A stretch of 64,000 nucleotides of DNA. It comes from Alphaproteobacteria bacterium (GTDB taxonomy: Bacteria > Pseudomonadota > Alphaproteobacteria > SP197). The stretch is from the NCBI GenBank assembly GCA_965228895.1, contig OZ245842.1, positions 384,001-448,000 on the forward strand, in the 5' to 3' direction. The notes under the pieces were generated by a model, which searched no databases, was not told the origin of the DNA, and saw only the letters and a program-made list of their open reading frames with translations. The position numbers and the translations under genes are program-made. Within the stretch, counting starts at the first letter, position 1; every line of letters starts with the position of its first letter. Of the stretch, positions 15,780 to 43,172 are shown in pieces.

Positions 15780-15807
15780 ATATTCCATAATGCAGATTAT
15801 GAACTCC
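15780..15807 (-). other. dif-like XerD/XerC recombination site 1
   Basis: ATATTCCATAA-TGCAGA-TTATGAACTCC matches the 11-6-11 architecture of E. coli dif (reverse complement ATTTAACATAA-TATACA-TTATGCGCACC). Confidence 0.7.
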
Positions 15808-16013
15808 TTGGCCTGAGCGTGCAGCTGACGGTCCAAGGCATTCTAGTCTTTTCGTCCAGAGACGATTTCTCCGGTGCAGGTTCAAATCAGCCCGCATCCG
15901 AACACGATGCCAGACCGGTGTACAAGCGGTCGAATGGCAACGTCGGCTTCGGGCCCAAGTTGCCGACTTGCTGCATCGTGCCGGATGTCTGGACGCAGAT
16001 GTCGTCGAAGTGG

Positions 16014-16922
16014 CTAACCTCTACGCGGTCTCCTGAGATCGTCGTTCAGCATGTCAATGAAGCGGCGGACCCGCGGCTCCAACAGGCGTTTGTGGGGGTA
16101 AAGCGCGATGATGGGTACCGTGCCGAAATCGACCTGCGGCAGAACATGTTCAAGTCGACCATCTGCCATGTCCGTGCTCACCAAAAGCCGCGGCAACAAT
16201 GCAATTCCAAGCCCGGCCAGAGCAGCTTCGCGCAGGGCTTCGGCACTATCAAGGCGGAGGCGAACACGCCCTTGGACGCGGGCCCAACTGCCATCCACCT
16301 CCTTAAGGTACCAGCCTTGCCTATCCCCTCGACTTGCAAACTGAAGCAGCTCGTGAACACCTAGTTGTTCTGCTGTCAAAGGCCTATCGGATCCCGAAAA
16401 ATAGGCTGGGGCCGCGCAAAGAAGCGCTACGTCGACCAAAAGCGTTCGCGTTATGAAGCTTTGGTCAGGTGAGCGCACACCGATACGGATCGCCAGGTCG
16501 AAGCCTTTCTCTATGATGTTGTCGACCCGGTCCGAGAAACTCATCTCGATCTGAGTTTCGGGCCAGCGCTCTAGAAATCGGCGAACAGTCGGCAGCAGCA
16601 GTCTGCGTCCAAGGGCGTCAGGCGCAGTGACTCGCAGCGTCCCGCGAGGGACACCGCGGTTACCCGCGATACTATTGTCAACGTCCTCAATCGCCGCGCG
16701 GATGGCCAGACCATGTTCGTAAAGGCGCTGGCCTTCCTCCGTCAGGTCAAGCGCGCGGGTGGTGCGGTTTAGGAGCCGCGCGCCGTAACCGTCCTCCAGC
16801 CGCGCAATCGCCTTTCCTGCAGTCGAGCGCGACAAGCCGAACGCCTTGCCGCCGGCGACGAAACTTCCGCTTTCGACAACTGAAAGGAACACGAGGATAT
16901 CGTTCACCTTCGATCCGATCAT
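16014..16922 (-). CDS. LysR family transcriptional regulator (CrgA-like)
   Basis: FLSVVESGSF...LE...GARLLNRTTR HTH; PRGTLRV; GFDLAIR. Confidence 0.95.
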   Translation of the reverse strand: MIGSKVNDILVFLSVVESGSFVAGGKAFGLSRSTAGKAIARLEDGYGARLLNRTTRALDLTEEGQRLYEHGLAIRAAIEDVDNSIAGNRGVPRGTLRVTAPDALGRRLLLPTVRRFLERWPETQIEMSFSDRVDNIIEKGFDLAIRIGVRSPDQSFITRTLLVDVALLCAAPAYFSGSDRPLTAEQLGVHELLQFASRGDRQGWYLKEVDGSWARVQGRVRLRLDSAEALREAALAGLGIALLPRLLVSTDMADGRLEHVLPQVDFGTVPIIALYPHKRLLEPRVRRFIDMLNDDLRRPRRG

Positions 16923-17024
16923 GGCACCCTCTTTGTGGACTGTTAATCGCTTCTATCACGAAACCAATTCGTCAATTGTTATCGCTATATGTGCTGACAT
17001 GACAGTTGATGAAAGGAGAGAGAC

Positions 17025-17432
17025 ATGTCCGCTTCAGTTGTTCGCATGAATCCGAAGACCCTGCCTGATACCGGCAAAGTCGGATACTCGCAGATCTCCA
17101 TCGCACAACCCGGGCGCTTAGCCTTCGTGTCCGGCCAGGTGGCCTGGCCCGACGAGGGCGGCGATGTTCCCGGATCGTTGGCCGAGCAGACCGCTATTGT
17201 GATCAAAAACCTGAATGGTGCTTTGGATGCCCTTGAGGCTACCCCTGACGACATTGTCCAGATGCGCGTCTATGTGACCGACTTGCGGTCCGAGACACGA
17301 GAGATCGCAATGACAGAGATCTTGCGCTTTCTCGAGGGCGCACAGCCCAGTCTCACAGGCATTGGCGTCGCCGCTCTGGCAGCACCTGACCTTCAGATCG
17401 AAGTTGAAATGGTGGTGCAGGTCGCAGCCTGA
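17025..17432 (+). CDS. RidA/YjgF/YER057c family protein
   Basis: GYSQ...FVSGQV...EQT...NL...V..LA.P...IEVE. Confidence 0.9.
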   Translation: MSASVVRMNPKTLPDTGKVGYSQISIAQPGRLAFVSGQVAWPDEGGDVPGSLAEQTAIVIKNLNGALDALEATPDDIVQMRVYVTDLRSETREIAMTEILRFLEGAQPSLTGIGVAALAAPDLQIEVEMVVQVAA

Positions 17433-17592
17433 CACCGATCGAGGAGGGCACAATGACGACTGCACCCTCCAAACTCGACCTTGTTCGAAGCCGACGTGAC
17501 GGGCTGGTGACCATCGCTGCCACTTAAGCTGCCGCCACACTCCCGGACACGGCTTCACTCAAACTGAACCTGACCTGAAAGGGCCTGCTGAA

Positions 17593-18423
17593 ATGTCTAG
17601 CATCACCACCACCGACGGAACTGAAATCTTCTATAAGGACTGGGGTCCGAAGGACGCTCAACCCATCGTGTTCCACCACGGCTGGCCGCTAAGCAGCGAT
17701 GACTGGGACAACCAGATGCTGTTCTTCGTTTCAAAAGGCCACCGCGTCATTGCCCATGACCGTCGCGGGCATGGGCGGTCGAGCCAGACCGACGTCGGCC
17801 ATGGCATGGAGACCTATGCCGCGGACGTGACCGAACTTGTCATGGAACTGGATCTGACAAACGCGGTTCACATCGGCCACTCGACGGGTGGCGGTGAAGT
17901 CGCGCGGTACGTGGCCCGGGCGCAACCCGGTCGTGTTGCCAAAGCAGCACTGCTTGGGGCGATCCCGCCCTTGATGCTGAAGACCGACGCAAACCCCAAC
18001 GGCATTCCGATGGAGATTTTTGACGGCTTCCGCACCGCACTTGCGGCAAACCGATCGCAGTTCTTCCTCGATGTTCCGTCGGGGCCCTTCTTCGGCTTCA
18101 ACCGCGAAGGCTCTGAGATTAGCCAGGGTTTGATCCAGAACTGGTGGCGCCAGGGCATGATGGGTAGTGCCTCCGCACAATATCAGTGCATCGCTGTGTT
18201 CTCGGAAACCGACCAGACCGCGGACCTCAAAGCGATCAACGTTCCGGTTCTCGTGATGCATGGCGAAGATGACCAGGTCGTGCCCATTGCGAACTCTGCG
18301 CTCAAGGCGGTCAAGCTGCTGAAGAACGGGACGTTGAAGACCTATGATGGCTTGTCACACGGTTTCTTCGCGACGCATCCTGATGAGGTCAACGCCGATC
18401 TGCTGGACTTTGTTGAGAGCTGA
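17593..18423 (+). CDS. cpo: Non-heme chloroperoxidase / alpha-beta hydrolase
   Basis: DGTEIFYKDWGP, HHGWPLSSDDW, HDRRGHGRS, GHSTGGGE nucleophile, HGEDDQVVP and HG catalytic triad. Confidence 0.9.
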   Translation: MSSITTTDGTEIFYKDWGPKDAQPIVFHHGWPLSSDDWDNQMLFFVSKGHRVIAHDRRGHGRSSQTDVGHGMETYAADVTELVMELDLTNAVHIGHSTGGGEVARYVARAQPGRVAKAALLGAIPPLMLKTDANPNGIPMEIFDGFRTALAANRSQFFLDVPSGPFFGFNREGSEISQGLIQNWWRQGMMGSASAQYQCIAVFSETDQTADLKAINVPVLVMHGEDDQVVPIANSALKAVKLLKNGTLKTYDGLSHGFFATHPDEVNADLLDFVES

Positions 18424-18639
18424 CAAAAACCAAATTGCCGGGCAGGAAGGATAGCCGGGCAATGCAACCGTTCGGATTGGAAACCCTCGAGGCAAGACGG
18501 CCATCACCTTACTTCGGCGTATTGTTTGGTCCCATACCGATGCCTACGAAACGGTTCTCTCCCGAACTTGCCGTTGTTCGAAACGCCGCCTGCTCGTAGT
18601 GATGGTGGCGAGCCAGCGATCTAAATTTGCACCGTGTGT

Positions 18640-18667
18640 ATTTTCCGTAATGCAGATTATGGGGCCG
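18640..18667 (-). other. dif-like XerD/XerC recombination site 2
   Basis: ATTTTCCGTAA-TGCAGA-TTATGGGGCCG; same spacer and orientation as site 1. Confidence 0.65.
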
Positions 18668-18847
18668 GCAAGATGTCCGAATGGCGACGAAGAGCGGACA
18701 TGGCGCTTCGCGGTGCCCTGTGTCCGCTGATAGCTAGGAACAGACATTAAGTAATGTCTGCATTGGGCAACAACAAAGACATGCCAGCTCTTCCCACGAA
18801 CAACTCCGTCCGCCGATTGAGACCTGACCTGCAGTTTGGTCGGTCGA

Positions 18848-21046
18848 CTAGAGGGGAGGCACCGGCCGCACGCTAACCGGTATGTTGCCCATGCGAGGCT
18901 GACCGGTGTAGCGGTCGACGCCGTCGTCGACACGGAGCAAGCGACCAGAATTCGTGCCGCGTTCGCGGACCTGCTCGTCCTGTTCGTCTGGCAGGCCGCC
19001 ATAAGTTGGCGCCATGGATACGACGCCGGCCCGAAGACTTTCATCAGGTTGCACGATGCTCCGGATCGACCCGTACTCGGAGTGGATCTCGACCAAATCA
19101 CCTGCGGAGAGACCTGCGCGATCGAGATCGTTGGGGTGCATGAAGGCCGGGTTGTAGGGCCATTTGCGCCGCAGCCCATGGAGGTCCTGACCATTCGAGT
19201 TGTAGGTACGGATTAAACGTCCGTTGATGAGGCGATAGGGATAGCGCTCGTCTACCTCGCCGTGATCGGTTTCTACGAAACAGGCCGCTGCTTGCGCAAG
19301 ATCCGCCAACATTTCGGAGTTGGCCGCGTCAAGACGCTCGGTCCAGCCGGCCTCGCGGCCCGTCACCACCATCGACTCGTTGCGGAAGATGGCACCGTGG
19401 GGATGTTTCTTGACTTCGGCGAGCGGTATTCGCGCATCACGCGTCAGAATCTCGAAGAGCGTGTCGGTGCTCGGTCGCGACACCATGTCGAGATCGACCT
19501 TGCCGCCTGTGGAGGTTGTCCCCGGCGCGGCTGCCGGTTCGATTGCGAGGCCGAGGCCCATGCGCTGCGCCAGGGCATAGAAGAACTCCCAGTCCTCAAT
19601 GACGTCCGCGCCTTCGGGAGGCTTGACGAGTGGCGGCGTGTACTGCGCGTAGGCGTCCTTGTACCCCATTCCGGCGGCGTAGAAGCTGAACAGCTCCTGG
19701 GACAAGGTCATGCCCGCCATCTCAAGCGGAAGCTTCGGTGCAATGACATAGTCTGCAAGACGCGCCGTTGCGGAGAACTTGATGTCGATCTGCACCAGCA
19801 GATCGAGTGCCTTGAGTGCACGTACGTTGAGGTCTTGATCGGGAATGGTCAGGGCAGGGTTGCCGGCGACACTGAGGAGGGCGCGAACCTGCCCGTCTCC
19901 CTCAAGCAGGATTTCCTCTGCAAGGGCAGAGGCCTGCAGCCCGCCGTCGCAATTAGCGATATCGCGCACCCGGAGTTGCGGGCCATAACCGTAGCCGCGG
20001 CGGTGCGGCGCTTCCGCCTGTGCGACCGCGGAAAAAGGAGCCGTCAGGGTTCCGGTATGCGTCACGGGATCGCCCGCACGGCTCCACTGCCCGCAGACCG
20101 TGTTGAGGGCGAGGACCAAATACTCAAAGAGCGTGCCCTGACCGTTGAAGCTGGGAGCCGTACCGGCGGTGGCGACGCCGCAGCCCGCAGCAAAAGTCCG
20201 CGCTGCCTCCACCAGATCGGCGACCGGAACACCCGCCCGCTTCGCGACCAACTCGGGCTCGTAGTGCGCCACAGCCGCCCGCAGCGCCTCGAGGCCCGTC
20301 ACGTTTTCTTCGACAAAGTCCGCGTCGTGCAATTCTTCGCGCAGGATCACGTTCAGCATCGCCGCGACCAGGGAGAGGTCGTGGCCAGGCCGGCACTGCA
20401 GATGGATATGCGCGCGTCGAGCCGTCTCGGTCCGGCGCGGATCGATCACGATGAGACGCATTCCCCGGGCGATGGCGGCGGTCAGTTCGCGGCCCGGATT
20501 CGCGATCGGCAGACCCATCTGGAAGGAGACGAGCGGGTTGGCGCCGATCAGGAGGGTCACGTCCCGTGTCTCGAAGGCCGGCGGCGGCGCCTGCCAACGT
20601 CCATGCAGCGCCTGGGCGACGGCCTTGCCCGGCTGGTCGATGGAGTTCGCATCGAACACCAGTGAAGCTCCTATTGCCTCCATGAAGGCGAGTGCGACCG
20701 GCACGGTCGCGGGGTTCACGATGCTGTAGGTGCCCCGATAAAGCGCCACCGAGCGCGGCCCGTGCTCAGCCACGATCTCGCTCAGTCGCCCGGCGATTTC
20801 ATCGACCGCGTCGGAAAACGGTATCGGGCGGAATGTGCCGTCTGGCTTCCGCTTCTGGCTTTGAAGTAGCCGCTCGGGGTGATCCCACTGTTCGGGCACG
20901 TGCTGCCCCTTGATGCAGCAGAAACCCGCATAGGCCGGGTTATCGCGATCGCCACGAACCTTCACCGGGCGTCCGTTCTCGAGCTCCACCAGAACGCCGC
21001 AGCCATTGTCGCAGAAACGACACATCATAGGTTTCGTGGTTCTCAT
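18848..21046 (-). CDS. Molybdopterin-dependent oxidoreductase (DMSO reductase superfamily, single subunit, cytoplasmic)
   Basis: N-terminal CRFCDNGC...C [4Fe-4S] motif; GANP, IDPRRTETA, ADYVI motifs; C-terminal MHP.D...V...GVV molydopterin-dinucleotide domain; no Tat signal. Confidence 0.92.
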   Translation of the reverse strand: MRTTKPMMCRFCDNGCGVLVELENGRPVKVRGDRDNPAYAGFCCIKGQHVPEQWDHPERLLQSQKRKPDGTFRPIPFSDAVDEIAGRLSEIVAEHGPRSVALYRGTYSIVNPATVPVALAFMEAIGASLVFDANSIDQPGKAVAQALHGRWQAPPPAFETRDVTLLIGANPLVSFQMGLPIANPGRELTAAIARGMRLIVIDPRRTETARRAHIHLQCRPGHDLSLVAAMLNVILREELHDADFVEENVTGLEALRAAVAHYEPELVAKRAGVPVADLVEAARTFAAGCGVATAGTAPSFNGQGTLFEYLVLALNTVCGQWSRAGDPVTHTGTLTAPFSAVAQAEAPHRRGYGYGPQLRVRDIANCDGGLQASALAEEILLEGDGQVRALLSVAGNPALTIPDQDLNVRALKALDLLVQIDIKFSATARLADYVIAPKLPLEMAGMTLSQELFSFYAAGMGYKDAYAQYTPPLVKPPEGADVIEDWEFFYALAQRMGLGLAIEPAAAPGTTSTGGKVDLDMVSRPSTDTLFEILTRDARIPLAEVKKHPHGAIFRNESMVVTGREAGWTERLDAANSEMLADLAQAAACFVETDHGEVDERYPYRLINGRLIRTYNSNGQDLHGLRRKWPYNPAFMHPNDLDRAGLSAGDLVEIHSEYGSIRSIVQPDESLRAGVVSMAPTYGGLPDEQDEQVRERGTNSGRLLRVDDGVDRYTGQPRMGNIPVSVRPVPPL

Positions 21047-21313
21047 GAATGTCCTCCGCGGACGACCAATGCCGTTTGCTCTCGCGATGACGGCTGTAGA
21101 ATCTAACGTGAGTGTTTTCGGGTGCTAAGCGTTCTCAAGCGCACAGGACGGTTCCGACAATCAATGATGCCGAACGTGCGGGTTTGTGTTGCTTCACCCA
21201 AGAGGTTCAACGATCGGCATCGCCAGGGCTGCGGCGTTTCCTCGCCCTGTCGCCTTTCCCAAACCTCAGGATGGACCACGTCATCGGGCGAGGATCGCGC
21301 CATCAGATCAGTT

Positions 21314-21739
21314 TCAATAGAATCGACCTTCGACCCAGCTGGTCTCGTAGATCGTATAGACCTTTCGGAACACCTCATGGATTTCCCAGATCATGTCGGA
21401 CTCGGCGGGAACGAAAAAATGGTCGCCGACCGTCAGGTTCATCGCCACACCGGTGTTCGCGTCCGTAAGCGTCGCGCTGCCTTTAACGACGTGGGCGAAC
21501 TCGCTTCCGGGATAGACAACCTTGAACTTTCCAACCGGGCACTCCCACACCCCCGCGCTATAAAGCTGTGTCGGATCGCGAAAGAACACGGTCCCGCGGT
21601 GGTCGTTGGGATTGCCGGCGAGGATATCCTCCGGCGGGAAGTCGGGCCAGGGCTCAAGGGGAATGTTCGCGAGATCCCGGTCGAGCACGGTTGCGGTGTA
21701 CGAACCCATTGGTGTTTGAACAGCGAGAGCATCGCTCAT
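21314..21739 (-). CDS. Cupin domain protein (DUF861/EutQ-like)
   Basis: SAGVWECPVGKF...EF.HV..G...GD.FFVP...WEI...RK.Y. Confidence 0.88.
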   Translation of the reverse strand: MSDALAVQTPMGSYTATVLDRDLANIPLEPWPDFPPEDILAGNPNDHRGTVFFRDPTQLYSAGVWECPVGKFKVVYPGSEFAHVVKGSATLTDANTGVAMNLTVGDHFFVPAESDMIWEIHEVFRKVYTIYETSWVEGRFY

Positions 21740-21768
21740 GATAACTCCTTTCGTTTGACGTCAAACGT

Positions 21769-22899
21769 TCAACCGGCGAGCTGGACCTCTTCATACATCT
21801 TGATGTAGCGGTTCAGGACATCGGGCGGCCACGACTGCCACGGCAGTGCCTTGGCCAGGAATTCCGCGATATCACCGTCAAGGCCCATCGCCTTGAGTAT
21901 CGCCGGATCGACGATGTCGTAGGTCAGGAGGTTCGCGTGGCCGTAGCCGTAGACCTCGATCAGAAACTTGCCGGCTTCGGGTGAATTCCAGGCGTTGATG
22001 AAGTCATAGGCGGCCTGTTCATCACCTTTCCCGTTCGTGGTCATGACAAGCCCACAGGCCCAGGAAATGATCCCACCCTTGGGGTTCAGCATGTACTCGA
22101 CGGGAACGCCGGCCTCCTGGAGACGATAGACCGGCCCGCTCCAGAAGTAAGAGGCGACAACCTCGCCGGACGACATCATGGCCTCGCCGTCCGTCTCGAC
22201 CGTCCAGTAGGAACGCAGCAGCGCCTTCTGGCGCAGCAGGACCTCTTTCATCTGCTCAACCTGCTCGTTGGTGACGTCGGTCGTATCGCGAATACCGAGA
22301 ATCATCGCGGCGAAAGCGACCGCCGCATCGACGGAGTCCCACATCGACAGGCGCCCAGCATGGGATTCGTCAAGCAGAAGCTCCCACGATTTTTCTTCGG
22401 CATAGGCCGGGTCGATCACGTCCGTGCGATAGGCAATCGAGTGGGTACCCCAGTCGTTGGCCACAAAAATCGGTTGTCCGTCCGCCATCGTTCCCGGCAC
22501 ATCCCGAAGCGCCGGGATCAAATCGTCCCAGTACTGCAACCGTGATGTGTCGATCTTGTTGATGACGTCGGCGTCGTACCAGCGCTGAACGACGGTGTTG
22601 CAGGGATGAGCGACATCGGCAGCATAACCCTGGCGCAGCTTGGTGAGAGCCTCCTCCTCGTGGGCAAAAAATGTGACATCGGGCGAGCCGCCGTATTTCT
22701 CCACGTATGCCGGATGCAGTTCGGGAATCTCGTAGCCGGCCCAGGTAAAATAGGTGATCTCCTCAGCACTGCGCGCCAGGCCGGGAACCAGTGGCACGGC
22801 GACGGAAGCGAGCCCGAGCGATGCGAGATAACGGTTAAAGGCGCGACGGTCGGTTCGCGACGCGCGGATGAGATCGTGAAGTCTGCTGCTGTCCACCAA
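21769..22899 (-). CDS. PotD/PotF-type polyamine/amine ABC substrate-binding protein with Tat signal
   Basis: TDRRAF twin-arginine leader; FTWAGYE, WGT..IAY, PKGG..SW and AYDFIN motifs. No cognate permease is adjacent. Confidence 0.9.
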   Translation of the reverse strand: MVDSSRLHDLIRASRTDRRAFNRYLASLGLASVAVPLVPGLARSAEEITYFTWAGYEIPELHPAYVEKYGGSPDVTFFAHEEEALTKLRQGYAADVAHPCNTVVQRWYDADVINKIDTSRLQYWDDLIPALRDVPGTMADGQPIFVANDWGTHSIAYRTDVIDPAYAEEKSWELLLDESHAGRLSMWDSVDAAVAFAAMILGIRDTTDVTNEQVEQMKEVLLRQKALLRSYWTVETDGEAMMSSGEVVASYFWSGPVYRLQEAGVPVEYMLNPKGGIISWACGLVMTTNGKGDEQAAYDFINAWNSPEAGKFLIEVYGYGHANLLTYDIVDPAILKAMGLDGDIAEFLAKALPWQSWPPDVLNRYIKMYEEVQLAG

Positions 22900-22981
22900 T
22901 CGGGTCCTCCCTAAACCGTAGAGCGATCGACGTGGGTGCGATCGTTTCGCGCAGCGTTGCCAATGTGGCGACTTACGTCAA

Positions 22982-23007
22982 TAATTATTTATCAAAATAA
23001 ATAGTTA
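22982..23007. promoter_or_regulatory. Putative TetR/BetI-type operator
   Basis: TAAtTATTTAT-CAAA-ATAAATAgTTA inverted repeat between the divergent SBP and TetR genes. Confidence 0.6.
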
Positions 23008-23261
23008 CTGATAAGCCATATATTGCAATGTGTTGACGGCATCGTGATCGGCATCCATGATCCCTGGCTTGGTCGCTATGACGTGATCAAGCTCGACGGC
23101 TGCAAGGTTTGACGATCCGTCGCGACGGCTTTGATGTGCCGGAAAAGATCGGAATTTTGGTGCTGGGAAAGCCAATGGGAACGAGCAAACGTGTTGGACG
23201 GCGCGTAGAACAAGTCCAAGTCGCCTTGTCGCGAGGCAAGTCGCATTCGTGCGACAAGGCA

Positions 23262-23909
23262 GTGCGATGGCAACGCAAGTCACGGGCCGACCGACGGCAG
23301 AGTCTTATCGACGCGACGATCAGGGTTATCGCCGCATACGGTATCAGCGATTGCAGCCTTGAGCGGGTCGCTGCAGCCGCGGGCGTATCACATGGTCTGA
23401 TCCGGCACTATTTCGGCGGTAAGGGCGCGCTGCTTGTGGCCGCCTATCAGGAGCTTGCTGATACGTTCCTGGCGACGCTCGATGAGGCCGTTCGCGCGTG
23501 CGACGGCGACGCCATGGCTTGCCTGGATGCCTATGTCGAGGTTGTCCATGATCCATTTGTCGTCAGCGAAGACCATGCGCTCTCCTGGTTTGGCCTGTGG
23601 TACGAGGCGCGCAGCAATCCCGAAGTTCATGCCATCAACAGGGAGTTCCAGGCCCAGTACCTCGACTACATAGAGAATCTCGTACGGATGGCCGCGACAG
23701 AGCGAGGCATCGATGTCGATGTCCAACTCGTCGCGCGGGGCTTGGTCGCACTGACAGATGGTCTGTGGCAGGAACTCATGATCGACCACACGGCATTTGG
23801 CACGCAGGTCGCCAAGGAGGTCTGCGATGATTATCTGGCCCGCCATTTCGATCCGGGCTGCAAGGCTAAATCGCGGTCGTTGGCAGGGTCGGCGAGCGTA
23901 AGCCGATGA
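23262..23909 (+). CDS. TetR family regulator, BetI-like
   Basis: RRQSLIDATIRVIA..G...VA..AGVSHGLIRHYFGGK; C-terminal ALTDGLW. Start uncertain (ORF is open from 23109). Confidence 0.88.
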   Translation: MRWQRKSRADRRQSLIDATIRVIAAYGISDCSLERVAAAAGVSHGLIRHYFGGKGALLVAAYQELADTFLATLDEAVRACDGDAMACLDAYVEVVHDPFVVSEDHALSWFGLWYEARSNPEVHAINREFQAQYLDYIENLVRMAATERGIDVDVQLVARGLVALTDGLWQELMIDHTAFGTQVAKEVCDDYLARHFDPGCKAKSRSLAGSASVSR

Positions 23910-23967
23910 CAGCGCTGTCGTTCAAGCGCCACCGGTTCTCACCCACCAACGAGAGAGAGTAGGCACC

Positions 23968-25200
23968 ATGAACGTCATCTCCTGCGGCCCGCGCACCGAT
24001 GACATCTGGCGCACCGTGTCCGACGAGGTTCTGGAGCGGCTGGGCCGCGACACCGCCGAAGCCCGCGGCCTGCCCAACGCCGCCTTCACGGACGCCGACT
24101 TTCTTGAACTGGAGAAGAAGCGTCTGTTCGCGCGCAGTTGGGTCTTTGCCGCCCCGGCGAGCCTGATACCGGGTCACGGCGACGTCCTGCCGCTCAGGAT
24201 CGCCGGTCGGCCCGTGATCCTCGTGCGTGACGGCGACGGTACGGTCCGCGCATTCCACAACGTCTGTCCGCACCGTGGCACCCGTCTCGTGACCGAGGGG
24301 AAGCGCGGTAAGGCGGTGCTTACCTGTCCCTACCACGCGTGGTCCTTCGGCCTAGACGGCACGCTTAATGGCCGTCCACACTATCACGGTCCCAACCAGC
24401 ACGAGACCGGACCCGCCAACGAAGCGGGTCAGCCCTGCCTGTTCGAGATCCGCAGCGCGACATGGCACGACTGGGTTTTCGTGAATCTCGACGGCGAGGC
24501 CGAGCCGTTCGAGTCCTTTATCGCTCCAGTCGAACAGCAGTTCGAGGGATACGACCTCTCCACCTTTCGCCGCGAAGAGCGCGAAATGCGGTTCGAGTTC
24601 GCGAGCAACTGGAAACTCGTTGCCGAGAACTACTGCGACTTCTACCACGTGTTTTCCGTTCATCCCGCGCTTGACGCTGCCATGTCGCCGCAGATGCGGC
24701 GGGCGATGTGGCCGGGCGGCTGCCACATGTTCAACGGCTACAGCTTCGAGGGCAGCGGCATCACCATCGAAGACGAAGCCCTGAATCTGCCCAAGCAGCC
24801 CGGTCTTCCGCCGGACCGAACCAGCAGCATGGTCTTCGGCCTGGTCTTCCCCAATGTCGCGATTAACGTCTACCCTGAGAGCCTGCAGTTCTCGCTGTTC
24901 GAGCCGGCCGGAGTCGACCGCACGATCATGCGCATGTGGTTCTATTACGTGGCAGATGCGGCAGAACATCCCGACTTCGCTGCAGCCCGCGACCGCGTCT
25001 ACAACGAATGGGCAGCGCTGAACGCTGAGGACGAGGGTATCTGCCGGCAGCTTCAGGAAGGCCGCGCATGCGAGGCCTATGATGGCGGCCGGATGGCACC
25101 CTACTGGGACAGCGGAACGATCCATTTCCACAAGCAGATTGCACTCGCGATCCGTCATGAGGGCGCATTTTCTGCGGCAACGTCCACAGGCGATCGGTGA
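23968..25200 (+). CDS. Rieske oxygenase alpha subunit (close paralog of 400..1626)
   Basis: CPHRG...CPYHAW; ENYCDFYH...HP; shares EDE.ICR.LQEGR.C.AYDGGR.APYWD.GT.HFHKQ with 400..1626. Confidence 0.92.
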   Translation: MNVISCGPRTDDIWRTVSDEVLERLGRDTAEARGLPNAAFTDADFLELEKKRLFARSWVFAAPASLIPGHGDVLPLRIAGRPVILVRDGDGTVRAFHNVCPHRGTRLVTEGKRGKAVLTCPYHAWSFGLDGTLNGRPHYHGPNQHETGPANEAGQPCLFEIRSATWHDWVFVNLDGEAEPFESFIAPVEQQFEGYDLSTFRREEREMRFEFASNWKLVAENYCDFYHVFSVHPALDAAMSPQMRRAMWPGGCHMFNGYSFEGSGITIEDEALNLPKQPGLPPDRTSSMVFGLVFPNVAINVYPESLQFSLFEPAGVDRTIMRMWFYYVADAAEHPDFAAARDRVYNEWAALNAEDEGICRQLQEGRACEAYDGGRMAPYWDSGTIHFHKQIALAIRHEGAFSAATSTGDR

Positions 25201-25366
25201 GCCTCCGGGAGCGTTGACGTCTTTGTGAGCGTCGGCGGTCCCGTTCTCGGAGCGGCTGACCAAATATGGACGGTAATGTTAGAACGCCAATCCGACGGAT
25301 CAGCGCTGAGAACCTCTCATCGCGCGCGCCGCGCCGACCCGGCGCGGGCCGCCGGCCCGAACCCGC

Positions 25367-25789
25367 TCAACCGGCCGTGTACGGTGCAACCTCATTGTCG
25401 CGTTGAGGCAGACCGTCCGTAATCTCGTAGTAGCAGCCTTTGCTGCTCGCATAGGCGTGATTGGTCATGTAGAGGGAGTTGGGCTCGTCAACCGATGCTG
25501 CCAAGAGCGCCAAAAAATCGTCGTCGTTGCTTCGCCAGAACAGGGTCGAACCGCAAACCGAGCAAAATCCGCGCTCACCGGCATCAGTCGCACTGAACCA
25601 TGACACGGATTCCGCACCTTCGATCTCTGTTCGGCTGGTCCTGCCATCGACAAAAGCGTAGCGGTGGCCGGATTGCTTCCGGCACTGTGAACAATGGCAT
25701 TCGATTACCTGAGGCCGAACGCCGGCGGCGCGGTAACGCACAGCACCGCAGTAACAGCCTCCGGTCACCTTACATGTCGATTTTTCCAT
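25367..25789 (-). CDS. GFA/CENP-V family zinc protein
   Basis: GGCYCGAVRY, CHCSQCRK, RGFCSVCGS; ATG 25789 follows AGGAG. Confidence 0.9.
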   Translation of the reverse strand: MEKSTCKVTGGCYCGAVRYRAAGVRPQVIECHCSQCRKQSGHRYAFVDGRTSRTEIEGAESVSWFSATDAGERGFCSVCGSTLFWRSNDDDFLALLAASVDEPNSLYMTNHAYASSKGCYYEITDGLPQRDNEVAPYTAG

Positions 25790-26055
25790 CTGGTCTCCTT
25801 GTCGCTCGATTTGGCATTGTGCGAACGCAGTTACAGCAACATCGACGATCCGCGTTCTGCTATGCATGTCGAACGTTGCGATCTGCACGTCCTTCAACTC
25901 ATTGGCTTTTGGCTGTGGCCTTAGCGGATTGCTGATATGACCGAGGTTGCGATTCCGCTTACGTCGATACCTTTCAGTGTTGCACAGCCATTACATCGCC
26001 TGCAAAGATCGGTGGGACTGACCACAGGCAGCACAGCATTGCAGCTAGCCGACAA

Positions 26056-27009
26056 ATGACAGTAGCGAATGACACCGTCCATTGTGGAGGTTGCCTTTGT
26101 GGTGCCATGCGCTATTCCGCAACTTTCGGCGCTTCCAAGACGGCCGCCCATTGCCATTGCGACATGTGCCGCAAGGTGTCTGGTGGCACATTCACAACGT
26201 GGGTCGAGTTTCAGGCCGAGACGTTTAGGATCACCAACGGCGATCCTGTCCGATTTCGGTCCTCCGATCTTGCAGAGCGAATGTTCTGTGGGCGCTGCGG
26301 GTGCCAGCTGACGTTTCACGCGGTGGGTGATCCCAAGGGTCCACCCGGATCGATTTGGATCACGCTTGGCAGCCTTGACAGGCCAGACGCGATTGAACCC
26401 ACTCAGCAAATATTCACAGATAACCAACTCCCTTGGCTGCACCTCAGTGATGCTTTGCCGCAGTGGTCAACGCAGATGCCCTGGATTAGAACGGACGAAG
26501 AGTTACCTCATCAGACAACATCAAACGCAGAAACAACTCACCCCCATGCTGCATCTCGAATGCAGAGCGAAACGCGTGGGGGCGGGTGCCTTTGTGGTTC
26601 AATACGTTACCGCTACGCTTGCGGCGGTACCGAGCGCACCGGTCATTGCCACTGCCACATGTGCCGAAAGTCGACGGGCGCGACACTGGTCAGCTGGACC
26701 TATGTCCCGTCAAAGAGCTTTGATTTTGTCAAAGGTAAACCAACGCGTACTCGGTCATCGCGACTAGCAGAGCGAACATTTTGCGGAACATGCGGCTGCC
26801 ACTTTACGGTTCAGGCAATGAGTGAATCAGACGCCGCTGCGGATGACCTGCGGATCAGTGTTGGTAGTCACGATCGGCCGCAAGACCTCCACCCTTCATT
26901 TCATATGTTTACCAATGAAAAGCTGACCTGTAACCGAACTGATGACGGCCTGAACCGCTGGCCGAATGAGCCTGCCAATCTTTACACGCGAGACGACCAT
27001 GTAAACTGA
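26056..27009 (+). CDS. Tandem double-GFA domain protein
   Basis: Two complete sets of GGCLCG / CHC.MCRK / R.FCG.CG motifs joined by a linker. Confidence 0.88.
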   Translation: MTVANDTVHCGGCLCGAMRYSATFGASKTAAHCHCDMCRKVSGGTFTTWVEFQAETFRITNGDPVRFRSSDLAERMFCGRCGCQLTFHAVGDPKGPPGSIWITLGSLDRPDAIEPTQQIFTDNQLPWLHLSDALPQWSTQMPWIRTDEELPHQTTSNAETTHPHAASRMQSETRGGGCLCGSIRYRYACGGTERTGHCHCHMCRKSTGATLVSWTYVPSKSFDFVKGKPTRTRSSRLAERTFCGTCGCHFTVQAMSESDAAADDLRISVGSHDRPQDLHPSFHMFTNEKLTCNRTDDGLNRWPNEPANLYTRDDHVN

Positions 27010-27119
27010 GATCAAATCGAGAAATGACGTCGAGACGGCCGCTTTGTCCGCGATCCTCGTCGGTCGCGTCGACCCTAGATCTCCGTCCGACCGGCAGTCG
27101 AAACATCAAGGAAGCAGGA

Positions 27120-27941: not shown

Positions 27942-27962
27942 TCAGCGCGCCGTGACAGTGCG

Positions 27963-31434: not shown

Positions 31435-31452
31435 CAGCGACGGCCGGCGGCC

Positions 31453-32693: not shown

Positions 32694-32695
32694 GG

Positions 32696-32977: not shown

Positions 32978-33083
32978 CGACCTGCAAGGTTCACATACAA
33001 ATTTCCATCGTGCTAGAGTGAACTCAAGTCCAACCGGCAAGGTGAACGCTTGCCGCCAGAAGGACAGGGGGAGGGGCGCCCGC

Positions 33084-34908: not shown

Positions 34909-34950
34909 GGCACCGGCCCTTTCCGGCCGTTGCGTGTACCGGAGAACACC

Positions 34951-37017
34951 ATGACCCGAGACCCACGTTTCGATGTTCTTTTCGAGCCCGTTCAGATCGG
35001 CCCGGTAACCGCACGCAACCGTTTCTTCCAGGTGCCGCACTGCAGCGGGATGGGTCACCTGCTGCCACGATCTGACGCTGCCATGCGTAGCATGAAGGCA
35101 GAAGGTGGGTGGTCGGTGGTCTGCACCGAGCAGTGCTCGTTTCACCCCCATGCGGAAGCAGCACCCTATCCGGAAACCAAGATGTGGGATCAGGACGACG
35201 TCATCCGCATGCGGCATTGGACGGACGCGGTTCATCACCATGGCGCGCTGGCCGGGATCGAACTGGTCAGCAACGCATCAGCGCTGCCCAACTGGTACAG
35301 CCGCGAAATTCCGCTGGGTCCCTCACACACGCCGGCAACCTATAGCCACGACCCCGTCCAGGCGCGCGCCATGGATCTCGATGACATCCGCGAGTTCCGC
35401 CGCTGGCACCGCGACGCCGCGCTACGGTCAAGGGATGCGGGTTTCGATCTGATCTATGTCTATTGCGGTCACGACATTGCCATGCCCATGGACTTCCTGA
35501 CCCGGCGCCGCAACCGCCGCACCGACGCGTACGGTGGCAGCCTGGAGAACCGGGTTCGGCTTTTGCGCGAGCTCATGGAAGACACGCTTGATGCGGTTGG
35601 CGGGGACATGGCCGTGGCGTTGCGTTTCGCTACGGACGAGCTGCTTGGTGACGACGGCGTCACCTGGGAGGACGAGGGCTGCAAGGTCATTGAGATGCTC
35701 GCCGACCTGCCCGACCTCTGGGACGTCAACGTCAGCGATTGGGCGCATGATTCCGCGACATCGCGTTTTAGTTCCGAAAGTTTCCAGGAGCCTTACATCG
35801 CGTTCGTCAAAGGCATGGTGAAAAAGCCGGTCGTGTGCGTCGGACGCTTTACGTCGCCGGATACCATGCTGTCGCTCATCAAGCGGGGTGTGTCCGACTT
35901 TGTCGGCTGCGCGCGTCCCTCCATCGCCGACCCGTTCATTCCGCAGAAGATCGACGAGGGTCGTCTTGACGACATCCGCGAGTGTATCGGCTGCAATATC
36001 TGCGTGACCGGCCAGCACATGAAGACGCCCATGCGTTGCACTCAGAACCCGACCGTGGGCGAGGAATGGCGCCGGGGCTGGCACCCGGAGAGGATCGAAG
36101 CCAAGGGGTCGGATGCATCGGTCCTGGTGGTCGGCGCCGGGCCGGCGGGCCTGGAGTGCGCGTTGGCGTTGGGGCAGCGCGGCTACCGGGTCGGCCTTGC
36201 CGAGGCACGACGCGAGCTTGGCGGACGTGTCAGCGATGAATCCGCGATGCCCGGTTTCTCCGAATGGGCGCGGGTGCGCGACTATCGGGCGTATCAGATC
36301 GAGAAGTTGCACGAGCGTGTCGAGGTGTTCCGCGAAAGCGAGATGTCCGCGGAGTCCGTTCTCGAGGCTGGCTATCAGCATGTCGCGGTGGCGACCGGTT
36401 CGCGCTGGCGCCAGGACGGCATCGGGCGCGCCAACACAGCCGGGCCGATACCGGGCAGCGACGCGGCGCACGTCGTGACGCCCAATGACATCTACGCCGG
36501 TGCGATCCCGGTCTCACCGGTCGTGGTGTTTGATGACGACCACTACTACATGGGCGGCGCGCTCGCCGAGAAACTCCACAACGACGGGCTCAAGGTGATC
36601 CTGGTGACGCCTGCGCCGGTCGTATCGTCCTGGGCGGAAGAAGCGCTCGAACAAGAGCATATACAGTCGCGGCTCGTAGAAATTGGGGTCGAGATTGTCA
36701 CCGGTCACAACCTCGCCGGAATAGGCGCCGACCACGTCGAGGTCGACGGAGTCTATGGCGAAGGCACGCGTCGGATCGATTGTGCGTCGGTTGTCATGGT
36801 GACATCGCGGTTGCCGAACGACGCTCTCTATTACGCGCTCAGGTCATCGCCTGACCGGCTTGGGGATGCTGGCATCCAGTCGGTCAAGCGTATCGGTGAT
36901 GCCCTGGGTCCGGGCATTATCGCTGCGGCCGTATGGAGCGGACACCGTTACGCCCGTGAGCTCGACGGTCCGCCGCCGGGTGATGTCCCGTTCAAGCGCG
37001 AACTCGTTGTCGTCTGA
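34951..37017 (+). CDS. Trimethylamine/dimethylamine/histamine dehydrogenase family protein, second paralog
   Basis: MTRDPRFDVLFEPVQIGP...QVPHC; CIGCNIC...C; GEEWRRGWHPE; DDDHYYMGG. Confidence 0.92.
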   Translation: MTRDPRFDVLFEPVQIGPVTARNRFFQVPHCSGMGHLLPRSDAAMRSMKAEGGWSVVCTEQCSFHPHAEAAPYPETKMWDQDDVIRMRHWTDAVHHHGALAGIELVSNASALPNWYSREIPLGPSHTPATYSHDPVQARAMDLDDIREFRRWHRDAALRSRDAGFDLIYVYCGHDIAMPMDFLTRRRNRRTDAYGGSLENRVRLLRELMEDTLDAVGGDMAVALRFATDELLGDDGVTWEDEGCKVIEMLADLPDLWDVNVSDWAHDSATSRFSSESFQEPYIAFVKGMVKKPVVCVGRFTSPDTMLSLIKRGVSDFVGCARPSIADPFIPQKIDEGRLDDIRECIGCNICVTGQHMKTPMRCTQNPTVGEEWRRGWHPERIEAKGSDASVLVVGAGPAGLECALALGQRGYRVGLAEARRELGGRVSDESAMPGFSEWARVRDYRAYQIEKLHERVEVFRESEMSAESVLEAGYQHVAVATGSRWRQDGIGRANTAGPIPGSDAAHVVTPNDIYAGAIPVSPVVVFDDDHYYMGGALAEKLHNDGLKVILVTPAPVVSSWAEEALEQEHIQSRLVEIGVEIVTGHNLAGIGADHVEVDGVYGEGTRRIDCASVVMVTSRLPNDALYYALRSSPDRLGDAGIQSVKRIGDALGPGIIAAAVWSGHRYARELDGPPPGDVPFKRELVVV

Positions 37018-37081
37018 CATCGAGAACGCCGGCAAGTGACCACGTGTAATTGTGCAAACGAACAACAAGGGAGGAAGTGAT

Positions 37082-38476: not shown

Positions 38477-38602
38477 CCTGCTCGGTGCTGACAAGAGAGT
38501 GGCCCTGTGCGTGGCGCAGGGTCACCTTTTTGTCGACCAACGGTCCATGTCATTTGGGTGATGGTCGTTGGCGATCGTTCGCGGTGACGGGAGGGAAGAT
38601 TG

Positions 38603-38908
38603 ATGTATGAGATCGATCCGGATCGCACGGACTTGATCGAGGAGTTTCGGCGAAGTCCGGGTGGTCCCTACAGTCCGGAACTAGCGTTGTTGGTCAATCG
38701 TCTCCGTCTCAGTCCTTTGGGCGAACGCTACATCCTGGTCTGCACCAGGCGCGGAACGGAGTGGGCCGTCGGCATGATGCCGACACAGCGAGGTCAAGCC
38801 GTCGAACTTCTGAACGGTCTGACCTTCAACGACTACTACGACGCGGCGCGCGAGGTGTTCCGATTGCGCTGGCAGGCCGTTACCGGCAAGGAACTCTCGT
38901 ATGCCTGA
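38603..38908 (+). CDS. dmfA1: N,N-dimethylformamidase small (alpha) subunit-like protein
   Basis: LIEEF...P.G..SPEL..L.NR.R...RY...W...F....A...VF..RW pattern, located directly upstream of the DMFase large subunit. Confidence 0.7.
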   Translation: MYEIDPDRTDLIEEFRRSPGGPYSPELALLVNRLRLSPLGERYILVCTRRGTEWAVGMMPTQRGQAVELLNGLTFNDYYDAAREVFRLRWQAVTGKELSYA

Positions 38909-38935
38909 TTTGATTCGCCGGAGAGAGGCGGAGAC

Positions 38936-41161: not shown

Positions 41162-41274
41162 ACATGGTCCCTTGGGGCCCACGATCGACCCCCGCGATGT
41201 TGCTGTCGTCGGACGCCTCTACTTTGACGAGGACGATGACATGAAGCCAACGTCACATCGACACAGGCGTCAGC

Positions 41275-42531
41275 TCAATCGTCGGTCGAACGTATGGTGC
41301 GAGGCAGCTTCGATAAGACCTCCAGCCCTTCTTCGGTGACCAGGAACGTCTCGATAAAGTTGCAGCCGGTGCCGCCCGGCCAATCCTCCCAGATGTCGTA
41401 CTGGTTTTCATAGTTGAAGACGAGCCCGGGTTGGACCGTCAGTTTGTCGGGCGTCGGACCGAACGTTTCCTCGTTCCAGTGGATCCAGCTGGCGCCCGTC
41501 CAATCGGGTGGGAACGAGATGCCGAGCGGGTAGCCGCCAATCCACCAAGCCTTATCGGTCAGACCGACCTTGTCGATGTAAGCGTGCGCGACCTCGTCAA
41601 CACGCGGCAGCGGGTCGCCGAGCTTGACCTCCCCCAGGATGGCATCAATCGAGCCCGCCGACTTCTCCATGACATCAAGCCAGCGGTCATCCGCCTTGCC
41701 GACGGACAGCGTTCGGCACATGTTGACGTGATAGCGGTGGAGCGATGCACAAAAGTCGAAGTGAACGAGGTCGCCCTGTTTCACCTTGCGATGGGTCGGC
41801 GCGGAATGGTGCGTTCCTGAGCGGACGCCAGAGGCGACCATGGTGTGAATGGTCGGATAGTTGCAGCCTTGGCTCATCAGGCTCGCCATCAGCACGCCTT
41901 CGATCTGGGTCTCCGTCATGCCCGGACGCATCTCGGCCCGCGCGGCCTCAAGCGCCGTATCCGCCATCGCCGCGGCTCGGCGCACAACGGCCATCTCGCG
42001 CGGTGACTTATAGATGCGCAACATCTCGACCAGGAGTGAGGCGTCGACCACCTTGGCACCCTTGTCGCGCAACTTCCCGGCCAGTGTCTCGACCACCTCA
42101 GTGGCGGGTCCCCAACCCCAGAACTGAAGCCCGATCGTACCGCCGGCCAGACCGCGCGCGGCGACCTCGTCGGCGATGATGTCGAAGTCGTCGGCGCCGG
42201 CCATCGGGTCATGGTCGAAGATCACGGCATCGCGTATCTCGGGCACGAGCGAGACAATCGTCGTGTGCGCCGCAGCGTCAAAGAACAGCGTGTCGTCGCT
42301 GTCGGCCCGGATCAGCAAATTGGTCGAATTACGAAGATGATTCCAGATCATGTCATAGCCGGTCAGCCAGTTGATGTCCGGCAACCGGCACAACAACAGC
42401 ACATCGACACCGGCTTTCTTCATAGCATCGCGAACCTGCTTGCGCCGCGCGGCGTATTCCTCCGGCGGGAACGGTTGCTCCCAATCGATCTGGTCGCGCA
42501 GGTATGTCTTTAGCTCCATCTGGTCCCCCAT
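41275..42531 (-). CDS. M24 (pita-bread fold) hydrolase, creatinase/ectoine-hydrolase-like
   Basis: F..EEY..R, WLTGYD, KSPRE, RYH..M.RT, GYPLGISFPPDW, ETFLVT. Several canonical metal ligands are replaced. Confidence 0.85.
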   Translation of the reverse strand: MGDQMELKTYLRDQIDWEQPFPPEEYAARRKQVRDAMKKAGVDVLLLCRLPDINWLTGYDMIWNHLRNSTNLLIRADSDDTLFFDAAAHTTIVSLVPEIRDAVIFDHDPMAGADDFDIIADEVAARGLAGGTIGLQFWGWGPATEVVETLAGKLRDKGAKVVDASLLVEMLRIYKSPREMAVVRRAAAMADTALEAARAEMRPGMTETQIEGVLMASLMSQGCNYPTIHTMVASGVRSGTHHSAPTHRKVKQGDLVHFDFCASLHRYHVNMCRTLSVGKADDRWLDVMEKSAGSIDAILGEVKLGDPLPRVDEVAHAYIDKVGLTDKAWWIGGYPLGISFPPDWTGASWIHWNEETFGPTPDKLTVQPGLVFNYENQYDIWEDWPGGTGCNFIETFLVTEEGLEVLSKLPRTIRSTDD

Positions 42532-42566
42532 ATCCTGGCGTCGCCTGTTGCGACCTTTGCGATCAC

Positions 42567-42929
42567 TCAGGCCGCGATCATGTAGAATTTGCGCAGCGTC
42601 TTCGTGATTTCCCACGTGCACGGTGTTCCCCTGGGGATGAAGAAGGTATCGCCGGACTCATAAGTTTCGGCTTTGCCGTCAGCGTCCGTCACCGTAACCG
42701 AACCGCCCAAAACCGTCATCATCTCGTGGACCGGATAGGCGTCGATCTCTTCCTTACACGGCGCGCATTCCCAAACGCCTGTGAGGATGCTCTCGTCATC
42801 GGACGTATAGGCGTGGGAGATGAGCTCGGTCTGATCGCCGGTCGTGAACGCGTCCGGGCTTGTCAGGTGGGACGGCACCATGCCGCCGGCGTGACCTTCG
42901 GAAATCAGTCGTGCGGGTTTGTTGATCAT
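42567..42929 (-). CDS. Cupin domain protein (DUF861)
   Basis: GVWECAP...HE.M.VL.GSV...GDTFFIP.G..CTWEI...LRKFY. Confidence 0.88.
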   Translation of the reverse strand: MINKPARLISEGHAGGMVPSHLTSPDAFTTGDQTELISHAYTSDDESILTGVWECAPCKEEIDAYPVHEMMTVLGGSVTVTDADGKAETYESGDTFFIPRGTPCTWEITKTLRKFYMIAA

Positions 42930-43144
42930 GACGGTCTCCCGTGTCCCAAGTTTCATATGCGATCGTGTCATCATGATGGACCGTCACCATGCGGGCCTCA
43001 AGGCTGGGTGCCGCCAGGTAGCTTCACTTTGTTGCAGTGCAACCCGACTCGTTTGTCTGTCGGGCCGTCGGGCTCAATGGAACGCATGCATCAGCTACCC
43101 GTTGGATAGGTCACGGATGATGTCATGACACGCGCTATGCGTAC

Positions 43145-43172
43145 TGTTTCCATAATGCAGATTATGGCGCCG
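43145..43172 (-). other. dif-like XerD/XerC recombination site 3
   Basis: TGTTTCCATAA-TGCAGA-TTATGGCGCCG; same spacer and orientation as sites 1 and 2; lies between divergent operons. Confidence 0.7.

Follow-up and report, generated by a model that had tools for sequence, protein, structure and literature searches.

Directly repeated dif-like sites with a common central region in two tRNA-downstream arrays of an alphaproteobacterial chromosome: probable Xer sites at the junctions of catabolic modules

The window considered here, a stretch of 64,000 nucleotides, comprises bases 384,001-448,000 of a single-contig 5.53-Mb alphaproteobacterial genome of 62% G+C (contig OZ245842.1), and the subject is a set of 28-mers resembling dif, the recombination site of XerC and XerD, that separate blocks of metabolic genes. 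An earlier note on this DNA had described three such 28-mers of one orientation with a common 6-bp core. All three are present, on the + strand and as listed below, and a 19-nt core, TTCCRTAATGCAGATTATG, has three matches in the window at up to two mismatches and none in any of 100 dinucleotide-preserving shuffles, which bears the observation out. The first site is abutted by a conserved element of ~230 nt, here called the left element; the assignment of the arms to XerD and XerC is argued further on.

15570-15779, + strand: left element of site 1, abutting the XerD arm, with phased TCCCTG repeats, the palindrome TTCCCTGTTAACAGGGAA and a tRNA-3'-like terminus (..GGTTCGCTCGAGACTGCCCGCACCACGACC)
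15780-15807, + strand: site 1, with XerD arm ATATTCCATAA, central TGCAGA and XerC arm TTATGAACTCC; the canonical XerC-to-XerD order reads on the - strand
18640-18667, + strand: site 2, ATTTTCCGTAA-TGCAGA-TTATGGGGCCG, without left element
43145-43172, + strand: site 3, TGTTTCCATAA-TGCAGA-TTATGGCGCCG, without left element

The 11-6-11 layout and the inner CATAA/TTATG dyad are common to all three window sites. Their left arm is near-invariant (ATATTCCATAA, ATTTTCCGTAA and TGTTTCCATAA) and their right arm varies in its outer 6 nt only, so that of the outer arms called divergent in the earlier note the XerC arm does vary but the XerD arm hardly does. Sites 1 and 2 are each flanked by the 3' ends of a convergent gene pair: a cupin-helix-turn-helix gene (+) and a LysR gene (-) at site 1, and a hydrolase gene (+) and a molybdopterin oxidoreductase gene (-) at site 2. 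A rough open reading frame (ORF) call leaves 17 of the 18 array sites described below without a spanning ORF, and the Pfam content to the left of every window site differs from that to its right, in agreement with the claims that the sites are intergenic and that gene content changes at them.

These three sites belong to a larger set. The 16-mer CRTAATGCAGATTATG (at most one mismatch) has 15 matches in the genome and a reversed control pattern has none, and 18 array sites were accepted after inspection of all 48 genome matches at up to three mismatches; left out were the match at 374114 on the - strand, for lack of a flanking arm, the other three-mismatch matches, which have no arms, and a pair of dif candidates that differ from the array sites in their canonical-looking outer arm. 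The count of three in the earlier note is thus an undercount of about 18 sites in two arrays, each downstream of a tRNA gene: array 1 has 14 sites at 345-562 kb, all on the + strand, downstream of tRNA-Met, and array 2 has four sites at 4.22-4.30 Mb, all on the - strand, downstream of tRNA-Ser(GGA). The arrays lie 1.7-1.9 Mb from the terminus. Within either array the sites are direct repeats, and the inverted XerC/D and XerD/C module boundaries of the Acinetobacter type are found in neither. Each of the 11 positions of the left (XerD) arm is kept in 13-18 of the 18 sites and the central TGCAGA in 15, the other three central regions (TGTAGA, TGCAGG and AGCAGA) being one base off; the inner TTATG positions are kept in 16-17 sites, the inner positions across the dyad in 16-18, and the outer six positions of the XerC arm in just 8-11. 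At least five of the 18 sites, window sites 1 and 2 among them, lie between convergent gene ends, and the orientation of the flanking genes varies.

The relation of these sites to the dif of the host emerges from a spacer-agnostic scan of the genome with TTCCATAA-N6-TTATG. It gives nine exact matches, of which seven are array sites and two are candidates for the true dif.

2,268,582: dif candidate, spacer TATATA, from the spacer-agnostic scan
2,598,520: dif candidate, spacer TGTAGC, from the spacer-agnostic scan

The two candidates, which have identical XerC and XerD arms and a canonical-looking outer XerC arm (..AAAGTCGCATAA), are separated by 330 kb; cumulative GC skew, which has its minimum at 5.05 Mb, peaks between them at 2.355 Mb. 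In the usual order they read AAGTCGCATAA-spacer-TTATGGAAAAT. Their XerD arm, ATTTTCCATAA (reverse complement TTATGGAAAAT), is found exactly in five array sites and with one to four differences in the remainder. Because of this identity, and because the alphaproteobacterial target XerD arms in Table 8 of Harmer et al. 2023 include TTATGGAACTT, TTATGGAACGT and TTATGGAAAAT (TTATGGAAC..), the invariant arm of the arrays is taken to be the XerD arm and the variable one the XerC arm, the reverse of the assignment in the earlier note. The XerC arm has an array consensus of roughly CGGCCCCATAA as against AAGTCGCATAA in the dif candidates, with the inner 5 nt kept, and the array central region differs from both candidate spacers. 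One site made up of the same XerD arm, TGCAGA and a canonical XerC arm, TTATGCGACTT, is present in an Aquamicrobium metagenome-assembled genome (MAG), and such single sites are also found in several metagenome contigs; TGCAGA thus serves naturally as a dif spacer in related lineages. A metagenome scan with the 19-mer returned 12 contigs, five of which resemble single canonical dif sites of other lineages; none of the 12 carries a left element or matches DNA of this genome. The geometry, the arm identical to that of the dif candidates and the common central region all uphold the earlier description of the 28-mers as dif-like 11-6-11 sites.

Tyrosine recombinases of the family PF00589 have four matches in the genome: an XerD-like protein at 1.05 Mb (NF001399, 366 bits, cut-off 279; TIGR02225, 323.6 bits, cut-off 329.6), an XerC-like protein at 0.85 Mb (TIGR02224, 318.2 bits, slightly below the equivalog cut-off of 335.15) and P4-like integrases at 5.26 and 1.23 Mb. 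None of the four lies inside the arrays, so that the integrase gene next to an att site that marks tRNA islands is absent from them, and in a genome of the same genus, G002, none of three PF00589 matches is on the array contigs, C4 and C9. PF12375/DUF3653, the family of XafT-like Xer activators (a term absent from the XafT paper searched), was not found in the genome.

Independent attention to the sites comes from the insertion sequences (IS) beside them. A conserved stretch of ~150 nt starts exactly 5 bp past the 11-nt XerC arm at 345431, 366734, 427151 (window site 3) and 4237514, with TGTAGG or TGTAAG as its first bases and AGTAGG at 4237514. The copy in the window is as follows.

43178-43330 (end approximate), + strand: remnant of the left inverted repeat (IRL) of an ISMex6-like IS1202-family IS, starting TGTAAGCGCAGAATTAAGACGTCAG, 5 bp (TGGTG) past the XerC arm of site 3

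This remnant aligns with the right flanks of 345431, 366734 and 4237514. The flank at 4237514 leads into an ORF of 112 aa that has an N-terminal match to the model for ISNCY transposases at E 5.8e-5, a score far under the whole-protein cut-off, as is expected of a fragment. Relatives of the ORF in a tblastn search of plasmids are annotated ISNCY transposases, ISMex6 among them, and ISMex6 on CP029174 has the same geometry and a near-identical IRL: GGTTCCATAA-GATATC-TTATGCGAACA, 5 bp, then TGTAGGCGCAAAATTGAGATGACAC. Such IRL remnants stand at four of the 18 sites of this genome and at two of the four in a Hyphomicrobiales MAG. Both Siguier et al. and Harmer et al. describe an IS1202 subgroup (ISAba32/ISAjo2) that inserts at Xer sites, with the transposase-proximal end at a distance of 5-6 bp to the XerC arm; the former report in addition that partial IS copies retain this end (IRL), and the latter that ISMex6 and ISRel26 target Xer sites in alphaproteobacteria. 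Targeting by IS1202 elements is a published correlate of Xer sites and not a definition of them. A second recurring right flank after the XerC arm (..GCAAG ATGTCCG.. / ..GACAAGACGTCC..), with short hairpins, is present at window site 2 (18668-18760), at genome 463,558 and at the G002 sites 96083/110059, and may be the end of another site-targeting element.

The left element is found directly against the XerD arm, near-full at ten sites and partial at an eleventh (4224340), and is unrecognisable at seven of the 18, including window sites 2 and 3. With a profile built from 11 copies, nhmmer matches genome 399570-399807 at E 2.6e-61 and finds ten near-full copies genome-wide, and the copies are 70-89% identical to each other. 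They contain two to six TCCCTG/CAGGGA boxes, at about -215, -194, -173, -76 and -65 forward and -55 reverse (at site 1, -218, -176, -79 and -68 forward and -58 reverse); the density of TCCCTG/CAGGGA in the genome is 0.27 per kb, and all ten genome clusters of at least three copies within 260 nt are at left elements. Two types of terminus are present, both in both arrays: type 1 (..GACTGCCCGCACCACCA; Met-like ..CACCACCA) resembles the end of the tRNA-Met before the first G002 site, and type 2 (..CACCGCCA, G/TTCTCC, ~12 more bases) the end of a tRNA-Ser with its downstream bases. These tRNA-3'-like termini occur at the sites that bear a left element and are unrecognisable at the other seven, again including window sites 2 and 3. 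The element lies on the XerD side, unlike the accessory sequences of cer and psi, which are on the XerC side; past the XerC arm the sites here have variable sequence or remnants of IS.

The left element may be a platform for accessory proteins. An RNA gene was rejected, as Rfam at gathering thresholds has no match in the window and ARAGORN finds no tRNA or tmRNA there; RNAalifold on seven copies shows compensatory change in none of 21 pairs, in a region that varies so little that the result is uninformative. Also rejected were the right end of an ISMex6-type IS, which it does not resemble, and a part of the IS110-family element near 4251541, since that IS is single-copy and the left element occurs elsewhere without it. 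As to a plasmid origin, none of 72,556 plasmid records matches the element by blastn. In G030, a genome from another family, the left element has 11 matches, and seven of eight fetched loci end in ..CCA with no dif-like site after it; no tRNA gene is near the three G030 loci examined. The G030 copies are on the + strand at 0.42-0.46 and 1.97 Mb and on the - strand at 4.29-4.50 Mb, and four of them run into shared sequence with reverse-oriented CAGGGAA boxes. One further copy in the window is truncated.

55346-55485, + strand: truncated left element (first ~120 nt), nhmmer E 8.5e-8, no adjacent site

The sequence after it resembles an ABC ATPase around the LSGG signature but has no proper gene start, and the locus looks like a rearrangement scar inside module C (below).

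Comparison with relatives shows a breakpoint at site 1. Contig C4 of G002 reads, in order, a backbone like that at 291-320 kb here, tRNA-Met, 5 nt, a site, a homologue of 383.5-399.8 kb, a site, a homologue of 451.3-463.3 kb (84% identity, 12 kb), a site, 14 kb of unique DNA, a site, 10.5 kb of unique DNA, and a site with further sequence onward. In G002, then, one site connects the left flank of site 1 with a module that is 51.5 kb away from it in this genome, and the 51.5 kb (three modules) containing window sites 1-3 are missing from G002. In a three-way alignment the G002 junction tracks the site 1 flank until ~35 nt before the core and the 451362 flank from ~20 nt after it. Among the 29 tRNA-Met loci of the family an intact dif-like site directly after the CCA is found only in G002; G041 has a degenerate dif-like site followed by an IS1202-like end, and this genome has a serine-recombinase element in that position. 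Module A has no orthologous DNA at E<=1e-20 in the other 32 genomes of the family, and modules B and C have none in the two congeners (G001 and G002) and in G030, where only paralogue-level matches of 65-75% occur (65-72% in the congeners for module B). The Hyphomicrobiales MAG has four exact sites, two with a left element and two with an IS end, and the cargo flanking them has no match to this genome. For movement of modules between the arrays the sole hint is a 75%-identical 0.9-kb match of G002 contig C9 to genome 536 kb, which is too weak to use.

The modules delimited by the three window sites are the following (contents from Pfam).

15808-18639 (2.8 kb): module A, with LysR at 16014-16922 (-), RidA/L-PSP at 17025-17432 (+) and an alpha/beta hydrolase at 17593-18423 (+)
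18668-43144 (24.5 kb): module B, amine/amide catabolism and uptake
43173-64000, continuing to genome 451361: start of module C, with an OB-fold/thiolase pair, an SBP_bac_5 transporter and other genes

The enzymes of module B are a Mo-oxidoreductase, two Rieske oxygenases, a methyltransferase, an amidase and a flavoprotein like old yellow enzyme (OYE) and trimethylamine dehydrogenase (TMADH), and it also encodes a TetR/BetI regulator, three GFA-domain ORFs, an ABC transporter, an N,N-dimethylformamidase-like protein and an M24 creatinase-like peptidase; the combination resembles a pathway acting on methylated amides or amines. Pfam was run on 24 ORFs between sites 1 and 3, 20 with a match and four without, and recombinase, integrase, transposase, phage and replication (Rep) families are found in none of the 24; the earlier note had described the region as carrying only metabolic genes and no phage, Rep or integrase gene. 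The largest ORFs of ten other modules comprise nine with metabolic, transport or metal-handling functions and one without a match, and no replication, transfer or Xer-activating gene was seen by Pfam in the scanned module ORFs. Module sizes are 3-44 kb, and the arrays make up ~6% of the chromosome. OYE-like flavoproteins with a second pyridine-nucleotide-disulphide oxidoreductase domain, of the trimethylamine/histamine dehydrogenase type, are present as paralogues at window 10741-12813, 12832-14796 and 34930-37017 and at genome 548,510-550,621; two congeners have many more copies, 65-69% identical.

Large serine recombinases are associated with the starts of both arrays. Between tRNA-Met (321,892-321,968) and the first site, 345,431, lies an element of ~23 kb (genome 321,892-345,430) with a serine recombinase gene at 322-324 kb, a terminase remnant, a ParB-like methylase, an AAA_15 ATPase and UvrD helicase pair, presumably Gabija-like, and a PIN protein; G002 is without it. 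A homologous large serine recombinase gene at 4,308,819-4,310,838 points at the tRNA-Ser(GGA) at the head of array 2, and a third lies ~0.9 kb from site 4295113. Both serine-recombinase elements start with ACTAG, one at the CCA end of tRNA-Met and the other 6 nt past the CCA of tRNA-Ser. Because they start at the tRNA end and not at the dif-like core, these recombinases probably did not make the module junctions. The absence of a dedicated integrase proposed in the earlier note thus holds for tyrosine integrases, of which the arrays have none, but both arrays are headed by large serine recombinase elements.

As judged from these sequences, the 28-mers are, on balance, probably secondary dif-like Xer sites (xrs), set in two arrays as junctions between cassette-like modules; this fits the site anatomy, the arm identity with the dif candidates, the targeting by IS1202 elements, the kept central region, the species indel at the core and the lack of a nearby tyrosine recombinase. 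The invariant arm, which on the - strand reads TTATGGAAAAT, would be bound by host XerD, and the variable arm by host XerC. With a 6-bp central region (TCTGCA in XerC-to-XerD order) that is common to nearly all sites, any two should be able to recombine through it; recombination between two direct repeats would delete the intervening DNA as a circle with one site. Each site of both arrays could serve for the re-entry of such a circle, and repeated events would build and reshuffle the arrays without an element-encoded integrase. At a distance of 1.7-1.9 Mb to the terminus, however, FtsK should seldom activate recombination, and the direct repeats would therefore be fairly stable. According to Miele et al. 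2022, a cassette between two dif1 sites excises at ~20% per generation at the dif locus and shows very little change at lacZ, where FtsK rarely acts, a locus dependence that would explain the persistence of arrays far from the terminus. The polarity of the sites relative to the replichores was set aside as evidence for FtsK, since the arrays follow the orientation of their tRNA genes and this explains the polarity. That the arrays form an integrase-free capture platform, in which XerCD excises, captures and reshuffles cassettes of 3-44 kb for catabolism, transport or metal handling, with the 230-nt arm as a platform for accessory factors or activation and as the sole conserved part of the family, is a tentative proposal that we hold to be rather doubtful. 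The earlier note was therefore confirmed and extended in what it observed, but its interpretation is borne out in part only.

A number of observations weigh against the reading of the 28-mers as Xer junctions. The inner TTATG is changed at five of the 18 sites and the XerC arms are weakly conserved, so that some sites may be dead; the IS evidence consists of remnants only, an intact IS1202-type transposase beside a site being found neither in this genome nor at two loci of the Hyphomicrobiales MAG (four ORFs). Of the breakpoints that the earlier note had supposed to lie at the sites, there is one at site 1 relative to G002, but in the genomes compared neither site 2 nor site 3 by itself bounds an indel. 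Circles or junctions of the kind it envisaged are not seen: contigs of four public runs on window 9001-29000 have no joint linking two sites, these data being contigs only, which break at the left-element repeat and drop rare forms. A second strain in these contigs (0.91 of sampled words) has the same arrangement, and contigs of two strains bridge site 2 unchanged. The indel relative to G002 ends in two repeat-bearing sites, with ~89% identity over ~86 nt, and homologous recombination between the 230-nt repeats could have produced it. Much of this would be accommodated if the sites were fossils, parts of a dispersed repeat of ~250 bp (left element plus site), with ordinary homologous recombination or unrelated rearrangements moving the modules: the ends of the indel, the sites changed in the inner XerC arm or the central region, the contigs free of circle or deletion junctions and the two strains of like arrangement would all be expected. 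We nevertheless regard it as quite improbable, since the 22-nt core is kept in 13-18 of 18 sites per column while the left element is only 70-89% identical, and the core is kept at the seven sites that have no left element. Retention of the spacer in 15 of 18 sites fits the need of recombination partners, not a decaying repeat, and the IS1202-type ends at four sites argue that Xer proteins occupied them when they were hit. Still less can be said for a transcription factor operator of catabolic operons. The 16-mer is palindrome-like (CATAAT-GCAG-ATTATG), intergenic and beside regulated-looking catabolic clusters, but window sites 1 and 2 are between convergent 3' ends, the orientation to genes varies across the 18 sites, each array has one orientation whatever the gene direction, and the asymmetric spacer is conserved. 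The sites are moreover confined to two arrays and not spread over a regulon or common at fixed promoter positions, as the earlier note had recognised an operator would be, and this explanation is very improbable indeed.

The remaining points against Xer junctions have a common direction. A pure Xer model does not call for three features that are classic in integrase-driven islands, namely the position downstream of tRNA genes, the tRNA-3'-like terminus and phased repeats that resemble arm-type sites; the genome has four large serine recombinase genes, three of them in or at the heads of the arrays; and the left element and the dif-like site are separable, because G030 has the former without the latter. 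They suggest tandem tRNA-anchored islands that grew by accretion, with a dedicated recombinase acting in trans, either a tyrosine integrase with a domain for arm binding, since lost or belonging to another element, or a large serine recombinase. The att core would then span the tRNA-3'-like end and adjoining sequence and the likeness to dif would be incidental; XerCD may bind the sites and attract IS1202 elements without moving modules. In its favour are the first G002 site, 5 nt past the CCA of tRNA-Met, the place of array 2 downstream of tRNA-Ser(GGA), the Met-like and Ser-like termini of left elements with phased TCCCTG, and the element junctions at tRNA-Met, which would imply an attB made of the tRNA end and part of the XerD arm. 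No tyrosine integrase is in or near the arrays of the two genomes, however, and the serine-recombinase elements join at the CCA end of the tRNA and not at the dif-like core. Serine integrases use dissimilar attP and attB sites, whereas all the junctions here are alike. Seven of the 18 sites, including window sites 2 and 3, keep the 22-nt core without a tRNA-like end or left element, and nothing in this view would account for an arm that equals the host dif arm at 11 of 11 positions or for IS1202 ends set 5 bp from the XerC arm. Islands of this kind are thus unlikely, though they deserve more weight than fossil sites, and Xer junctions are the preferred reading.

Read as Xer junctions, the arrays share features with several known systems. 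Like the integrative mobile elements exploiting Xer (IMEX; CTX, TLC and VGJ of Vibrio and the gonococcal genetic island), they have no recombinase of their own, are flanked by direct dif-like repeats of which one arm may be degenerate, and would form tandem arrays by serial integration with host XerCD as the presumed recombinase. The IMEX known so far sit at the terminus dif and comprise phages, satellites and conjugative islands that bring genes for replication or transfer, whereas the array sites at 0.35-0.56 and 4.22-4.30 Mb follow tRNA genes, at 1.7-1.9 Mb from the dif candidates (2.27 and 2.60 Mb), and have purely metabolic cargo in the scanned ORFs; their central region is also unlike that of both dif candidates. 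The pdif/dif modules of Acinetobacter ('xrs cassettes') likewise form linear multi-module arrays with IS1202 elements 5 bp from the XerC arm and without a module-borne recombinase, but have inverted sites with varied central regions, in contrast to direct repeats with one central region, which make excision possible in principle. They are also small and often carry resistance genes, whereas the modules here are catabolic, of 3-44 kb, in an alphaproteobacterial host and downstream of tRNA genes, many with a 230-nt arm. The Acinetobacter modules are reported not to excise but to drive plasmid cointegration, and 'dif module islands' are described on an Acinetobacter chromosome.

With cer and psi there is a shared plan of an Xer core and ~200 bp of conserved non-coding DNA (~180 bp of accessory sequence in cer/psi), motifs repeated like protein-binding sites and direct repeats that favour deletion, but the accessory region of cer/psi is on the XerC side (Siguier et al.) and the left element on the XerD side. 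Tandem tRNA islands (accretion elements, like cis-mobilisable elements) are alike in their position at a tRNA 3' end, in a tRNA-3'-like sequence repeated at part of the junctions and in integrase-less members with att-like repeats; here there is no tyrosine integrase in or beside the arrays, and the invariant repeat is the dif-like 22-mer, which persists without the tRNA-like part. Integron arrays also have like-oriented sites that separate promoter-poor or self-contained cargo and a sole conserved part at the 3' end of the unit, but they depend on intI and folded attC sites, and here no intI is in the list of tyrosine recombinases, no attC-type site was found, and the units are of operon to island size with their own regulators. 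A full-text literature search found no description of alphaproteobacterial arrays in which directly repeated, same-spacer Xer sites follow a tRNA gene; related arrays may already be listed among the targeted sites in the supplements to the IS1202 papers.

Xer-bounded modules have so far been known mainly from Acinetobacter plasmids, and IMEX are tied to the terminus dif. The arrays described here are a third configuration, in a marine-type alphaproteobacterium: long chromosomal direct-repeat arrays with one spacer, downstream of tRNA genes and far from the terminus. The catabolic modules between the sites have the size of pathways, and species within the genus differ in what these modules contain. 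Their 18 sites, with graded divergence of the XerC arm and an unexplained arm on the XerD side, form a natural test bed. If the reading is true, the direct-repeat geometry would allow true cassette excision and capture, which is unsettled for dif modules, and the housekeeping machinery of dimer resolution would be a general tool of pathway assembly, a functional counterpart of the integron for whole pathways.

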